From the sequence record PZ386980.1: 64,000 nucleotides of DNA; one strand, 5' to 3'. The translations under genes and the position numbers were made by a program. A model generated the notes under the pieces. It was given only the letters and a program-made list of their open reading frames with translations. It was not told the origin of the DNA and made no database searches. This document shows positions 17,679-40,923 of the stretch, in pieces (within the stretch, counting starts at the first letter, position 1; each line of letters begins with the position of its first letter). This stretch comes from a phage.

Positions 17679-17910
17679 ATTTAATTAGTAATTTACAGAC
17701 ACTTTCATCTAGTGTAATTACCGTATCTGTATTACTGTGATATGATTGTTTTTCAATTCGTTTAATTGCTAATATAGTATCACTTATAAGATAAAGCTTA
17801 TGAAGGAGCTCAGCTCCTGTTACCATAACATCGAGATTATCTTGCTTATTAGTATGCTTCCTTATACCATCTATTAGACGATTTAAATATTTTGAATTGA
17901 TGTTAATCAT
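17650..17910 (-). CDS. small protein, tandem paralog 3 (86 aa)
   Basis: ORF track; weaker similarity. Confidence 0.4.
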   Translation of the reverse strand: MININSKYLNRLIDGIRKHTNKQDNLDVMVTGAELLHKLYLISDTILAIKRIEKQSYHSNTDTVITLDESVCKLLIKFEEAIRGNN

Positions 17911-17916
17911 ATAGCC

Positions 17917-19236
17917 TCACACATAAAACACATCATAACGACCACGTGTTACACCAACATAAAGAAGCTGCTGAGCTAGTTCAGCATCTGCATAATGAAT
18001 ACAAGGCGTATAAATGAAAGCACGGTCTACAGACATACCCTGAGCTTTATGGAATGTTGATGCAGGAAGTGCTTTCACTTTACTAAACTGTGATTTAGCA
18101 TCCCAAAAATCACTCCACGGAGCCTTTCCGCCTTTATTCCAATTTTTATAAGTTTCTGCTGTTTTACCTAAAAACAGGTTAAACTTATATAGCTCTTCAT
18201 CAGATGAAATTATTTTAATCTTTTCACGATAATATTCATCATCGCCGTAAGTTTCTACTGTTAAATCCCAATGACGAATTAAGTATTCTCCAGGAACACC
18301 ACGAGCTTTAACAAACGTCGATGTATACTCTGCTTCTATAATACGAACTAATTGTCCATTATTAAAAATAATTTCTGATACAGGCTTTCCATCAATTTTA
18401 TATGTTTTAATTAACGGTTCTTGCATTACAATAATTTCACCGACAATAAAGTCTTTATCAGTTTCAAAAATCTTTTTACGAATAATGCTATTTAACTTGT
18501 CAACAGATTTATTCGTAAATGCCATTACGCGATTTTCAAACAAATCATCTAGTGATTTGACGATTGAAAAATAATTTACCATAAAATCGCGTAAAGCGGT
18601 ATCACCAGTAAATCCACGTACTCCATGCCCATCAACAACTTTATCATAAATCCATTTACCGTTGCGAACATCAGTAGCTACATCAATAATAGGAGCATTA
18701 CTGCGTTTAACTTCAGTAAGTTCACACTGATAAAAATCTTTGTGTGTAAAGAATGGACTGATATAAGCAGTATTTTCTCCTGGGTCAACAGGTCTAATTT
18801 GCTTATTATCGCCTATTCCAATTATAGTACACCACGGTGGGATAGTTGAAAGCAAAATTTTGAAGAGCTTTCTATCATACATTGACACTTCGTCGCAGAT
18901 TAATACCCTGCATTTAGCTAAATCTGGTACTTCTTTTTGTTCAAAAAGAACGTTTTCTTCATATGTTACTGGGTTAATTTTAAGAATACTGTGAATAGTA
19001 CTCGCTTCTTTCCCCGACAGTTTTGAAAGAATCTTTTTAGCTGCATGTGTAGGAGCTGCCAAAATGATACCAGTTTCACCCGTAGATATTAAAGCTTCAA
19101 TGATGAACTTAGTAAGAGTAGTCTTACCAGTACCAGCAGGTCCATTAATAGTTACATGATGTTTCTTTTCTTTAATAGCCCTCATAGCGATGTTAAAGGC
19201 GTTTTTCTGGCCTTCTGTCAAATCATCAAATGTCAT
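17917..19236 (-). CDS. dda: Dda DNA helicase (SF1)
   Basis: 439 aa, MTFDDLTEGQKNAFNIAMRAIKEKKHHVTINGPAGTGKTT (Walker A); matches T4 Dda. Confidence 0.92.
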   Translation of the reverse strand: MTFDDLTEGQKNAFNIAMRAIKEKKHHVTINGPAGTGKTTLTKFIIEALISTGETGIILAAPTHAAKKILSKLSGKEASTIHSILKINPVTYEENVLFEQKEVPDLAKCRVLICDEVSMYDRKLFKILLSTIPPWCTIIGIGDNKQIRPVDPGENTAYISPFFTHKDFYQCELTEVKRSNAPIIDVATDVRNGKWIYDKVVDGHGVRGFTGDTALRDFMVNYFSIVKSLDDLFENRVMAFTNKSVDKLNSIIRKKIFETDKDFIVGEIIVMQEPLIKTYKIDGKPVSEIIFNNGQLVRIIEAEYTSTFVKARGVPGEYLIRHWDLTVETYGDDEYYREKIKIISSDEELYKFNLFLGKTAETYKNWNKGGKAPWSDFWDAKSQFSKVKALPASTFHKAQGMSVDRAFIYTPCIHYADAELAQQLLYVGVTRGRYDVFYV

Positions 19237-24181: not shown

Positions 24182-24700
24182 TTAATAACCTCGGTCTTGA
24201 CGTGCGAAATTTTCAGCATTTTTCAGGTAATAAAGTTTAAAGATTTCTTCAGCTGTAAGACCAAGACCCTGGAACATATTCAGAACGAAATGGAGAATAT
24301 CAATCATTTCAAATTTAATTTCCAATTGGTCTTGTGGAGACAAATCAGTAATCAGAGTTTCACGGCGTTCACCATGCTGCGACTTCCAAGGCTTCCATAC
24401 AGCAGATGCATCTTTTTCACCATTGCTCATACCACCAAGAGAAGTCAGAAGTTCGCGGAATTCATCATCAATATAATCTTTCTGATTACGCAGCCAATCA
24501 ACAACTTCACCTGCGGTAGCCAAATCATCAGGATGACGGTTATATTCAGGTTTATCTTTAGCTAAACGAACCTGTAGAGATTTCTGCATATCAAGCATAA
24601 CCTGCAGCGGGTCTTTTTCATCACCAAGAATATCCCAGTATTCATTTTGAGCTTTATCAGCGCCTTCAATCAGTTGTGAACATTCGTTAAAGTAAGCCAT
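24182..24700 (-). CDS. 56: dCTPase/dUTPase (MazG-like)
   Basis: 172 aa from MAYFNECSQLIEG (track ORF over-extended upstream); matches T4 gp56. Confidence 0.88.
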   Translation of the reverse strand: MAYFNECSQLIEGADKAQNEYWDILGDEKDPLQVMLDMQKSLQVRLAKDKPEYNRHPDDLATAGEVVDWLRNQKDYIDDEFRELLTSLGGMSNGEKDASAVWKPWKSQHGERRETLITDLSPQDQLEIKFEMIDILHFVLNMFQGLGLTAEEIFKLYYLKNAENFARQDRGY

Positions 24701-24729: not shown

Positions 24730-24762
24730 GATTAATTATACAATAAATATATAAAGCAATAA
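24730..24762 (-). promoter_or_regulatory. candidate MotA-dependent middle promoter for gene 56
   Basis: minus strand ATTGCTTTAT - spacer - TATAAT. Confidence 0.45.
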
Positions 24763-24771
24763 GGAGGACAT

Positions 24772-24972
24772 ATGGTACAAAAATTAATGGCACTTGTTAA
24801 TGCCATCAAAGGTAATAAAAAGCGTATAGCTTTTACTATTTCTGCTATGGTAGGAATTTTACTCTGGAACTTTATTTTATCACCAATTGCAATTGCGCAT
24901 GGTGTTAATATTCCAGTAGTTACTCTTGATACATTTGTAGATTTAGCATTTGCTTTAGTTGGGTTAATTTAA
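24772..24972 (+). CDS. candidate plus-strand small membrane protein (66 aa)
   Basis: ATG 4 nt after AAGGAGGA; two hydrophobic segments; sits in the 56-61 gap, convergent with gene 61. Confidence 0.4.
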   Translation: MVQKLMALVNAIKGNKKRIAFTISAMVGILLWNFILSPIAIAHGVNIPVVTLDTFVDLAFALVGLI

Positions 24973-25997
24973 ATCTTAGCATATTTAGATAACCGCATTT
25001 TAGCCATCAACCCCTGTGCAATATTATTTTTCATATATTCCATAATTTGTTCAGGGGTTGCACCTTCCTTTCTAATCATATCATTAACATCTTTTGATTT
25101 CCAGGGAGATTTATCCCAAAACATAACCCTTTCTCCTGCATCAACTAATTTAGTCATTCGTTTGATAGTGTCAGGGTGACGAGGTTCATTATCTAAAACC
25201 CACACACGTCTATCTTTAAATGGAACAACTTCTAGGTCTAATTGACCACCTGTAATAGCTATACCATTTTCAATAAAAAGTGAATCTATAGGTCCTTCTA
25301 GAACATATACATCACCATCTTTAACTCGTTCGACTCCATAGATTTTTGTTGCTTCAGGATAAGCTTTGATAGTGATATATTTTTGGGGAGCATCTTTCTT
25401 TAATGCACGTCCTTGAAAAGACTCGGCTTTTCCATTAGCATTATAAATTGGAATAACAAGACGAGGCTCAGAAATTTCCTTTTTGTATGTTCCCGGTGCT
25501 ATGCTATTAACTAATTTAGGCCATTCAGTTGTAAACCAAAGATATTTCCATTTATCCTTTGGAATACAACGAGCTTTTACATATTTTATAATTGGATGGT
25601 CTTCCGCCAGTTTATCTAATCTAACACATGACGGAAGAGATTTAATCATTTTCTTCTCAGGTTGTTTAGGAAGTTCTTTAGGTTTTTCTACTGGACGACT
25701 TTTACCTTTTTCTTTTCTTATTTCAAAGATATACTCACGATATAAATCAGGTTCAAACTCCTTTAAATATATTCCGATTGGTGCATGATAGTTACAGTTA
25801 TAACAATGAATATTTCCTTCATTATTATCACCATAATACCATCCACGAGCTTTATTCTGGTCGGTTTTTGAATCTCCGCAAACAGGGCATCTAAACCGTA
25901 ATTTAAAAGTTGAACTATTATTTACTTGTGTGAATTTAGGTAAATGAGCCAATGCACGATACGCAAACTCATTATCAATCCAAGGTATTGATGACAT
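24969..25997 (-). CDS. 61: DNA primase
   Basis: 342 aa, MSSIPWIDNEFAYRALAHLPKFTQVNNSSTFKLRFRCPVCGDS (zinc ribbon); matches T4 gp61. Confidence 0.9.
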   Translation of the reverse strand: MSSIPWIDNEFAYRALAHLPKFTQVNNSSTFKLRFRCPVCGDSKTDQNKARGWYYGDNNEGNIHCYNCNYHAPIGIYLKEFEPDLYREYIFEIRKEKGKSRPVEKPKELPKQPEKKMIKSLPSCVRLDKLAEDHPIIKYVKARCIPKDKWKYLWFTTEWPKLVNSIAPGTYKKEISEPRLVIPIYNANGKAESFQGRALKKDAPQKYITIKAYPEATKIYGVERVKDGDVYVLEGPIDSLFIENGIAITGGQLDLEVVPFKDRRVWVLDNEPRHPDTIKRMTKLVDAGERVMFWDKSPWKSKDVNDMIRKEGATPEQIMEYMKNNIAQGLMAKMRLSKYAKI

Positions 25998-26165: not shown

Positions 26166-26522
26166 TTAACCTCTATTCATAAAAGCATTAAAAATTTGGT
26201 CATCAATAGATGGAATAGCAACCTTTTCGGCATCATTTAGCAAATCATTAATTTCATCAGATAACATAACACATGTGCCTTTATTTCCTGTAATTGTTAC
26301 TGCACAATTACGAACGTTTTCTTTATCAAATTTTAGGTTAATATTTTCGTAGTGAAAATCCTTTAATGCCGAATATATCTTTAAAATGAAATTGTCTTTT
26401 ACTACAATAAACCCAACCTCACTATTAAAACATGGTTCATGGAAACTGTAATAAACCTTTTCATCTATAAAATCGTATGAAATTTTTTCCATTTTTAAAT
26501 ATGAAAATTCAGAACTATACAT
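26166..26522 (-). CDS. hypothetical protein (118 aa) with shared C-terminal cassette
   Basis: C-terminus ...SIDDQIFNAFMNRG almost identical to the next ORF. Confidence 0.5.
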   Translation of the reverse strand: MYSSEFSYLKMEKISYDFIDEKVYYSFHEPCFNSEVGFIVVKDNFILKIYSALKDFHYENINLKFDKENVRNCAVTITGNKGTCVMLSDEINDLLNDAEKVAIPSIDDQIFNAFMNRG

Positions 26523-26523
26523 A

Positions 26524-27165
26524 TTAACCTTTATTCATAAAAGCATTAAAAATTTGATCGTCAATAGAAACATTTACTTTAGACTGTTCTTCAAACGGTA
26601 ATTCATATCCACATATTACAATTTTGTGATCGATACCAAAATACACAGAAGCAATATGATTAATATTATTTTCAGTGAAATCTAAATCAACATCAATATC
26701 TTTTTGACTAACGCTCAAAGGATAATTAATACGAATAATTCGATTATCTTTAACAAAGATTCCACCGACATACTCTGTGTTGCGTTTAAAGTTTACACGT
26801 TTCCTAAATGAAAAATATTCAGGTTCTTTATGAGCCCGACTCATAGGACACAATGAGTAGCTAGAATAAGAGATGTCAAATCCTACACCTTCAATATGAG
26901 CCAACGTGTCATGATTAAACCAATTATAATCATATGCCAAATCCATTATATTGTAATATGTGAAAGGCACCGGATTAACATCATGTGTTGTACCTTTAAA
27001 ATCTGCCCAGGCAACGATTTCGTTATCTTTAACAATTACAAAAATTGTGCCAATAAGATATCCACGGTTATTTTCATCAGGCGTTATATTATAACATTGC
27101 GCATCAGGAAATTTACCGTATTTAAACGGTGGATTTTTGTGCATATAATAAATCATATTATTCAC
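26524..27165 (-). CDS. hypothetical protein (213 aa) with shared C-terminal cassette
   Basis: C-terminus ...SIDDQIFNAFMNKG. Confidence 0.5.
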   Translation of the reverse strand: MNNMIYYMHKNPPFKYGKFPDAQCYNITPDENNRGYLIGTIFVIVKDNEIVAWADFKGTTHDVNPVPFTYYNIMDLAYDYNWFNHDTLAHIEGVGFDISYSSYSLCPMSRAHKEPEYFSFRKRVNFKRNTEYVGGIFVKDNRIIRINYPLSVSQKDIDVDLDFTENNINHIASVYFGIDHKIVICGYELPFEEQSKVNVSIDDQIFNAFMNKG

Positions 27166-40168: not shown

Positions 40169-40176
40169 TATAAATA
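40169..40176 (+). promoter_or_regulatory. candidate late promoter (TATAAATA) for the HNH gene
   Basis: exact TATAAATA on the plus strand 34 nt upstream of ATG 40210; AAAAGGA SD in between. Confidence 0.45.
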
Positions 40177-40209
40177 TGTTTATCACTCGCTGTATCAAAA
40201 GGATATGTT

Positions 40210-40923
40210 ATGAATTATAAACTAATTTATGAAAAGTTAATCTCTAATGCTAAATCTCGAAAACTTGATTGCTATACTGAATCTCATCACATTATACCAC
40301 GCTGTTTAAATGGCAGCGATGATGCTTCAAACTTAGTAGATTTAACACCGGAAGAGCACTATGTAGCTCATCAACTTTTAGTAAAAATTTATCCTTCTGA
40401 ACCAAAATTAATCTATGCTGCTAACATGATGACAGTTTCCACGAAATACGCTAAACGTAACAATAAAACTTTCGGTTGGATTCGTCGTAAACTCTGGGAA
40501 ATAGAAAAGAATAAAGAATTCTCCCAGGAGACACGAAAGAAAATGTCTGATGCAGTAGCTAATAAAGCAAGACTAACTTGTCCACATTGCGGTAAGTCCG
40601 GATTAAGCGGGAATATGAATCGATGGCATTTTGATAACTGCCCGAATCACCCTAATCCTAAAGTTAGACCACCGATGTCTAAAGAACACAGAAATAATAT
40701 CTCAAACGGGCTTAAAGCAATCATTCTTGAAGAAACATCCTGCGAATTCTGCGGAATGATAGGCAAGAAATGCGTTATTGCAGCGCATAGAAATTTCTGC
40801 AAGAAAAATCCAAATGGACGCAAGAAAACTGAAAAGACTGGTACTTGCGTCCATTGTGGTAAAGTTACCACTTTCGGAAATTTATCAAGGTGGCATAATG
40901 ATAACTGTAAGCACAAACATTAA
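40210..40923 (+). CDS. free-standing HNH homing endonuclease (237 aa), plus strand
   Basis: HNH motif ESHHIIPRCLNGSDDASNLVDLTPEEHYVAH; two C-terminal repeats CPHCGK...NMNRWHFDNC / CVHCGK...NLSRWHNDNC. Confidence 0.75.
   Translation: MNYKLIYEKLISNAKSRKLDCYTESHHIIPRCLNGSDDASNLVDLTPEEHYVAHQLLVKIYPSEPKLIYAANMMTVSTKYAKRNNKTFGWIRRKLWEIEKNKEFSQETRKKMSDAVANKARLTCPHCGKSGLSGNMNRWHFDNCPNHPNPKVRPPMSKEHRNNISNGLKAIILEETSCEFCGMIGKKCVIAAHRNFCKKNPNGRKKTEKTGTCVHCGKVTTFGNLSRWHNDNCKHKH

Follow-up and report, generated by a model that had tools for sequence, protein, structure and literature searches.

A probable late gene for a predicted small inner-membrane protein on the plus strand between genes 56 and 61 of a T4-type phage

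The DNA analysed here is one strand of 64,000 nucleotides (nt) of phage sequence (record PZ386980.1; this whole stretch is called the window), and the subject of this report is a plus-strand open reading frame (ORF) of 66 codons that lies in it between gene 56 and the primase gene 61. Over the length tested, the window is 100% identical to Enterobacteria phages RB51 and RB68 (Tequatrovirus). The coding sequence (RB32ORF030w / RB51ORF032, phrog_2024) extends from ATG to TAA at 24772..24972 on the plus strand and encodes 66 amino acids (aa). An in-frame TAA at 24760-24762 bounds the frame upstream, so that the ATG at 24772 is the earliest possible start. On the minus strand, gene 56 (dCTPase) occupies 24182..24700, with its 5' side at 24700, and gene 61 occupies 24969..25997, its stop codon overlapping that of the 66-codon ORF by 4 nt in convergent orientation (24969..24972, both strands). 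An initial annotation of the window, made from the letters alone, had placed here a plus-strand 66-aa ORF with a strong ribosome-binding site, in an interval without any minus-strand ORF and ending convergently at the gene 61 stop. All of this was recovered, with matching coordinates and translation: gene 56 ends at 24700, the 203-aa minus-strand ORF that reaches 24793 is merely a GTG-extended reading of gene 56, and the two stop codons overlap.

The Shine-Dalgarno (SD) sequence AAGGAGGA was read at 24761..24768 on the plus strand, 3 nt before the ATG, or 4 nt when the distance is counted from its GGAGG core. In a survey of the plus-strand ORFs of the window (ATG starts, at least 35 aa, n = 113), in which an SD counted when it ran for 5 nt or more and was properly spaced, AAGGAGGA was the strongest SD of all 113. 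A good SD together with the absence of a minus-strand ORF was observed in 2 of the 113, the 66-codon ORF and a 237-aa HNH-endonuclease ORF at 40210..40923, which bears out the earlier statement that, endonucleases aside, the former is alone among plus-strand ORFs in having a strong ribosome-binding site. The HNH-type homing-endonuclease ORF (window 40169-40923, plus strand) is the sole other credible plus-strand gene, with the consensus TATAAATA 33 nt before its ATG. The length of the 66-codon ORF alone is within chance for AT-rich DNA; combined with the ribosome-binding site and promoter motif, and with purifying selection and conservation across genera, it goes beyond chance.

Upstream of the SD, a T4 late-promoter (gp55-type) -10 element, AATAAATA, of a kind that works with no -35 element, was found at 24742..24749 on the plus strand, 22 nt before the ATG. 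It is the A(-13) variant, which is the commonest variant, with 9 of 50 listed T4 late promoters (PMC2988020). Transcription is predicted to start at about 24755-24756, which would leave a putative leader of about 16 nt with the SD in it. The heptamer ATAAATA is about 8-fold depleted in the window, with 5 occurrences on both strands (2065(-), 24144(-), 24743(+), 40170(+) and 53446(-)) versus 41.4 ± 5.8 expected, and TATAAATA occurs twice versus 10.9 expected. Four of the five heptamer sites stand 22-33 nt before an ATG, those of the 66-codon ORF, soc, endonuclease VII (gene 49) and the HNH endonuclease, and the fifth falls in an SD-ATG spacer; soc and gene 49 are known late-promoter genes. In 8 of 9 genera, and also in the Mosigvirus-like phage ESCO47, NATAAATA was observed 12-22 nt before the ATG, with flanking DNA that is no longer alignable, and in Kanagawa- and Marfavirus the full consensus TATAAATA precedes the ORF.

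In T4, early and middle transcripts all run with the polarity of genes 56, 61 and 41, and only late ones run either way (PMC2988020). The 66-codon ORF lies on the strand opposite early and middle transcription, and therefore no other promoter class can make its mRNA; no convincing sigma-70-type plus-strand promoter was found near it. Because two independent arguments, strand polarity and the AATAAATA motif, point the same way, the gene is very probably transcribed late, by gp55-RNA polymerase. A differential RNA sequencing study of T4 reports 150 phage transcription start sites, 22 of them antisense (bioRxiv 10.1101/2024.04.04.588121). Within 400 nt after the ORF no canonical plus-strand terminator was found. 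A G+C-rich stem of 9 bp (CAACCCCUG / CAGGGGUUG), closing a loop of 35 nt, is present at 25008-25060 on the plus strand, 36 nt past the ORF stop and inside the 3' end of gene 61, and is the sole candidate structure that might end or stabilise a late plus-strand transcript.

Homologues of 63-74 aa, convergent with the primase gene, were found in Tequatro-, Mosig-, Gapriver-, Dhaka-, Kanagawa-, Jiaoda-, Gelderland- and Marfavirus and in ESCO47, the genera beyond Tequatro-, Mosig- and Gaprivervirus being reached via a weak-similarity search seeded with the Gaprivervirus homologue. The junction between genes 56 and 61, named earlier as the place to look for homologues in other T4-like phages, thus holds them at the same convergent position in nine genera. 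The 4-nt stop overlap with gene 61 is kept in 5 of the 7 genera compared, and GGAGG or AGGAG before the ATG is conserved in 9 of 9. The profile phrog_2024 (no function assigned) matches the ORF product with E=1.5e-31, residues 2-66 aligning to profile positions 1-65 of 65, and matches the homologues of seven other genera with E=1.7e-15 to 4.8e-28; it was the sole PHROG match, with no other at E<=0.1.

By tblastn with the 66-aa product, 693 phage records match, 687 of them at a query cover of at least 80%. In the phage collection, about 954 records carry a primase at least 60% identical and 912 carry a detectable ORF homologue, and the ORF is therefore close to universal in the group. It is absent from four T4-like phages that stand farther off, 44RR (Biquartavirus), KP15 (Slopekvirus), AM101 (Lazarusvirus) and FL37 (Krischvirus), where a same-strand gene directly follows gene 61. 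An exhaustive HMMER search with a three-clade profile against 1.84 billion representative proteins returned the family only, plus a repetitive 1822-aa false match and fragments. The gene is essentially confined to Tevenvirinae plus Marfavirus, the record of which gives no family or subfamily.

The frame is open at similar length in nine genera, with a synonymous divergence above 1.3 between Mosig- and Gaprivervirus. For nearly all informative pairs, compared inside Tequatrovirus and inside Mosigvirus, the ratio of nonsynonymous to synonymous substitution rates (dN/dS) of the ORF lies at 0.07-0.15, and variable sites at codon positions 1:2:3 are distributed 6:2:12 in Tequatrovirus and 6:0:13 in Mosigvirus. 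With this dN/dS, membership in phrog_2024 and synteny, the 66-codon ORF is judged to be a genuine protein-coding gene under purifying selection, and the real plus-strand gene proposed in the initial annotation is upheld. The ORF product is 55% identical to that of Mosigvirus versus 73% for gp61, and 20-29% identical to those of other genera versus 60-64% for gp61; by these identities it evolves about twice as fast as the primase, around a fixed core.

In ESCO47 (vB_EcoM_ESCO47, OM386662.1), two tandem plus-strand paralogues are present, one of 67 aa of the 'MG..FYQIWKL' type and one of 65 aa of the 'M.KL..LI.AIKG' type. They overlap by 8 nt, with the ATG inside ...GCATGCTTAA, and a single CATAAATA precedes the pair. 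A 30-kb metagenomic contig also has both paralogue types; the two subfamilies can coexist and may act together. A 61-aa library copy of the ORF product was also observed in which Ala, Thr, Ser, Pro and His are replaced throughout by Val, Ile, Phe/Leu, Leu and Tyr, the pattern of a C-to-T conversion of the DNA; this copy is probably that of a T4 spike-in whose assembly used bisulfite-type reads.

The 66-codon gene is not a new find and is already annotated in RB51, as RB32ORF030w (RB51ORF032, YP_002853987.1; 'similar to RB69ORF029w'), and in hundreds of relatives. The T4 reference NC_000866 holds the intact ORF at 17738..17938 on the plus strand, with the substitutions A25T and I39V, both conservative, inside a 309-bp gap between dam and 61 that is blank in the annotation. 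Certain other T4 records list it as hypothetical, and the T4D annotation table of a 2025 HIDEN-SEQ transposon study omits it (bioRxiv 10.1101/2025.11.20.689424). The window lacks both dam and segF, which made up the old 'gene 69' locus; T4 has them, with segF placed between soc and 56 (PMC2988022). The initial annotation had stated that the T4 genes of this locus are absent here, which is right for dam and segF; as a replacement for these two genes the ORF is ruled out, since T4 carries it intact beside dam. Literature searches under the locus names RB32ORF030w and RB69ORF029w found nothing, and general ones on ribosome profiling and small ORFs in T4, on late antisense transcripts and on time-course RNA sequencing of Tequatrovirus yielded nothing on the ORF locus.

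Signals on the minus strand overlap the locus. A MotA-type middle promoter of gene 56, identified as a consensus match only, consists of TTGCTTTA, an 11-nt spacer and TATAAT at 24735..24759 on the minus strand. It lies about 35 nt upstream of gene 56, back-to-back with and overlapping the late promoter, and its spacer holds the reverse complement of ATAAATA; the pattern TGCTTNA-N10-13-TANNNT was counted 19 times in the window versus 6.45 ± 2.47 expected. The possibility that ATAAATA is kept only for this middle promoter was rejected because in Mosigvirus and other genera the distance of the motif to the ORF ATG is kept and its distance to the minus-strand elements is not. A terminator-like hairpin of 11 pairs with the loop AACA, followed by UUUUUG, was found on the gene 61 strand, downstream of gene 61, at 24774..24809 (minus strand), within codons 5-13 of the ORF. 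Its fold has -12.4 kcal/mol (z=-3.8), is weaker in T4 (-8.9) and is absent in Mosig-, Gapriver-, Dhaka- and Jiaodavirus, and the hairpin was rejected as a family-wide feature, being found in Tequatrovirus only. In the close relatives fPS-65 and SA20RB, some records annotate a 'terminator' at the locus.

An AlphaFold2 model of the product, built on an 11-sequence alignment (mean predicted local distance difference test score, pLDDT, 78), contains helices at residues 2-12, 16-42 and 52-63. A cationic amphipathic segment at the N-terminus (residues 2-18, 24775..24825, plus strand), with K4, K13, K16, K17 and R18 and a hydrophobic moment of 1.19, includes the first of these helices and is predicted by the positive-inside rule to be cytoplasmic. 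It is followed by a single strong transmembrane helix at residues 19-42 (24826..24897, plus strand), part of the modelled helix 16-42 with a pLDDT of about 80. Only residues 19-41 score as a membrane span, with Kyte-Doolittle values up to about 2.0 and a summed apparent free energy (dG) of about +0.4 over residues 19-37.

Toward the C-terminus, a short hydrophobic acidic helix with D53 and D57 was modelled at residues 52-63 (24925..24960, plus strand). Residues 47-66 are hydrophobic apart from these two aspartates and have a summed dG of about +6.5. The product ends in ...DLAFALVGLI, the sole charges beyond residue 18 are D53 and D57 (net -2), and position 53 is acidic (D or E) in most members. 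Residues 52-63 are probably periplasmic or interfacial and probably form no second span; a two-span hairpin topology is less likely, the second segment having two Asp and only 18-20 residues to the C-terminus. From the model and the scales, the product would span the inner membrane once, its N-terminus inside and an acidic tail of 24 residues in the periplasm. A small membrane peptide with two hydrophobic segments had been proposed beforehand: both segments are present and one span was scored, but only residues 19-41 qualify as a membrane span, and the product is probably not of a two-span form (D53, D57; dG about +6.5).

The conserved core of the family, W-N-[FLYI]-x-x-x-P-x-A-x-x-x-G-x-x-[LIV]-P, spans residues 32-48 (24865..24915, plus strand), which make up the outer half of the transmembrane helix and the next loop. 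Among 23 diverse members W32, N33 and P38 are invariant, and conservation reaches at least 90% at A40, position 47 and P48; in the 8-genus set G44 and P48 are invariant. The clustering of conserved residues at the outer helix half and the following loop suggests that the product contacts some other membrane protein specifically.

The dispensability of the gene can be read from two phages. In Bas37 the orthologue bas37_0144 (91945-92145, plus strand) overlaps the primase gene bas37_0145 by 4 nt, and in HIDEN-SEQ, where 20 of its 24 TA sites had received insertions, it was put in the class 'Non-essential' (bioRxiv 10.1101/2025.11.20.689424); its coordinates are identical to those of the tblastn match in phage KarlGJung. 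In T4_583L, a viable genome-reduced T4 (MZ375356.1), the ORF is frameshifted by the loss of 2 nt at about codon 22, 4 nt are deleted from the SD-ATG spacer, and dam is truncated; these lesions may be the result of Cas9 escape or may be sequencing errors. The burst size of T4_583L is 109 versus 120 for the wild type (PMC9825161). Since bas37_0144 tolerates insertions and T4_583L is viable with a frameshifted ORF, these data indicate that the gene is accessory and dispensable under laboratory conditions.

Around the ORF, genes for anti-defence and exclusion are plentiful (dmd, 61.2/AdfA, sp), sp being 2 kb away. RB32ORF033c and 61.2 (window 26166-26522 and 26524-27165, minus strand) share the C-terminal motif SIDDQIFNAFMN(R/K)G, and the pair looks like a tandem duplication of 61.2. 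The 61.2 homologue in ESCO47 carries a Pfam AdfA (anti-DarT) domain.

Taken as a whole, the locus very likely holds a genuine T4-type late gene for a small inner-membrane protein of accessory function. In the mechanism proposed, gp55-RNA polymerase would start late at AATAAATA and produce a leader of about 16 nt with the SD, from which the 66-aa product would be translated. The product would insert in the inner membrane with its cationic amphipathic N-terminus in the cytoplasm, helix 19-42 spanning and the tail in the periplasm, and the conserved outer-leaflet helix face and juxtamembrane loop would bind another membrane protein. Candidates for this partner are phage components of lysis or exclusion, host proteins and defence effectors that act on the membrane, and through such binding the product would adjust the integrity of the envelope, or the timing of lysis, late in infection. 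As a statement of function, an accessory factor that binds a membrane partner and tunes the envelope or lysis is speculative and put forward tentatively; it is part of this speculative mode of action that the product would not itself be a pore-former or a structural protein. The fast divergence, the restriction to one phage group, the dispensability, the anti-defence and exclusion neighbourhood and the coupled paralogues of ESCO47 fit such an interaction with the host or envelope.

More doubtful is a specific late envelope role for a gene that is kept in nearly all Tevenvirinae yet stands outside the T4 reference annotation, in which the invariant W-N...P..A...G..LP helix face would be the recognition surface. 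Examples of such a role would be protecting the membrane when a defence that acts on it is triggered late, or modulating what holin, antiholin or spanin do, and a phenotype would then appear only in hosts or conditions beyond present screens.

Several observations weigh against the reading as a late accessory membrane protein or against parts of it. Transcription, translation and membrane location of the ORF are deduced from sequence and model, and the topology is based on simple scales and the positive-inside rule. The promoter is a one-mismatch variant here, T4 has GATAAATA, and Gelderlandvirus is without an exact ATAAATA. The classical T4 rapid-lysis (r) mutant hunts are not known to have mapped a gene here, and a strong role in lysis inhibition is therefore disfavoured. 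For the functional proposal, no credible match to the product was found in Pfam, NCBIfam, PADLOC or PDB sequences, and a BFVD fold search gave only its own family members above noise. PADLOC, searched with four family members, gave 0 matches at E<=1; it covers defence-system proteins, and an anti-defence role stays compatible with this result. In three of the HIDEN-SEQ host comparisons, bas37_0144 showed no phenotype and no significant change, with log2 fold changes of +0.33, +0.20 and -0.28, all with q=1 (bioRxiv 10.1101/2025.11.20.689424).

It is improbable that the product is a holin or another direct lysis effector whose late accumulation permeabilises the inner membrane, even though its small size, transmembrane helix and predicted late expression suit such a role and the OE5505 homologue A0A482MZV5 bears the UniProt/BFVD label 'Holin'. 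The C-terminus is hydrophobic with a net charge of -2 instead of the typical charged hydrophilic tail, and no Pfam, NCBIfam or PHROG holin family was matched, even at E<=1. T4-type phages already possess holin T, which is required for lysis, and this counts against a further holin. Growth and burst size are close to normal despite the insertions in Bas37 and the frameshift in T4_583L, so that the product is at least not required. The label itself is apparently automatic or a depositor guess, other homologues carrying the misleading product names 'dCTP pyrophosphatase' (Salmonella phages CGG4-1 and SEA1) and 'DNA packaging ATPase' (Klebsiella phage SAKp28).

Residues 1-42 could also be taken as a long cleavable signal peptide, with P38 at -5, A40 at -3 and A42 at -1, which would release a secreted hydrophobic acidic peptide of 24 residues beginning at H43. 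The n-h-c layout, the conservation of P38 and A40 and the small residue at position 42 in most members agree with this, but the hydrophobic region of about 20 residues has the length of an anchor, position 42 is Thr (a poor -1 residue) in most type-B members and Met in one, and position 40 is Leu in Mosigvirus. The spacing A40xxxG44 can equally be read as a helix-packing motif, and cleavage is very improbable beside a membrane-anchored product.

There is only a slim chance that the late plus-strand RNA itself is what matters, running antisense into gene 61 and shutting down late primase synthesis, with the peptide secondary. The ORF ends inside the gene 61 stop and is followed within 400 nt by no canonical terminator, only by the 9-bp stem at 25008-25060, and both strands of T4 serve as templates for RNA, at different times, at several sites (PMC2988020). 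Such a role leaves unexplained, however, the dN/dS of about 0.1, the third-position bias, the conserved SD, the W-N...P...G..P motif in unalignable DNA and the translationally coupled paralogues of ESCO47. Antisense and protein roles could coexist.

That there is no gene, only a chance ORF whose sequence is kept for the minus-strand promoter of gene 56/dam and the terminator of gene 61, is hardly credible, for although a middle-promoter match and a terminator-like hairpin overlap the locus and the T4 reference annotation is blank there, the hairpin is Tequatrovirus-specific, the promoter lies upstream of the ORF and not within it, the frame is open in nine genera despite synonymous divergence above 1.3 (Mosig-/Gaprivervirus) with dN/dS far below 1, and the protein motif and SD are conserved.

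The 66-codon ORF can now count as a real gene rather than an annotation guess, and its predicted late expression against the early-gene strand makes it directly testable. NC_000866 and the annotations derived from it, including the T4D table of the 2025 transposon screen, omit the gene, and gene-based T4 omics and screens consequently cannot report on it. Should a function be found, the few known accessory proteins of the T4 envelope and lysis would be joined by one more.

Compared with known systems, the ORF is a member of phrog_2024 (RB32ORF030w / RB69ORF029w / bas37_0144) by full-length profile match, length, position and core, a family that has no Pfam model and no solved structure. It resembles the T4 late genes that lie in the early region (soc, gene 49, and the intron and free-standing endonucleases) in having (T/A)ATAAATA 22-33 nt before the ATG, a strong SD and a short leader (PMC2988020, PMC2988022). 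Its product, a tiny membrane protein, differs from theirs, which are nucleases or a capsid decoration, and late transcription is deduced for the ORF. With holins (T4 T of class III and the small class I/II proteins) it shares the predicted single span with N-terminus in and C-terminus out and the predicted late expression, but it is without a charged C-terminal tail, a large periplasmic domain or profile similarity and is dispensable, and it is therefore not counted among them. Imm and Sp, the T4 exclusion proteins, are likewise small, non-essential envelope proteins of the same accessory neighbourhood; they are encoded on the early strand, whereas the ORF lies on the opposite strand with predicted late expression only, and the proteins have no sequence similarity. 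With its one helix holding an invariant Pro and a polar W-N, and with conservation on one part of that helix, which hints at a specific helix-helix contact, the product bears a resemblance only, with no homology, to the small transmembrane-helix regulators that bind membrane proteins, such as phiX174 E on MraY and E. coli AcrZ on AcrB.

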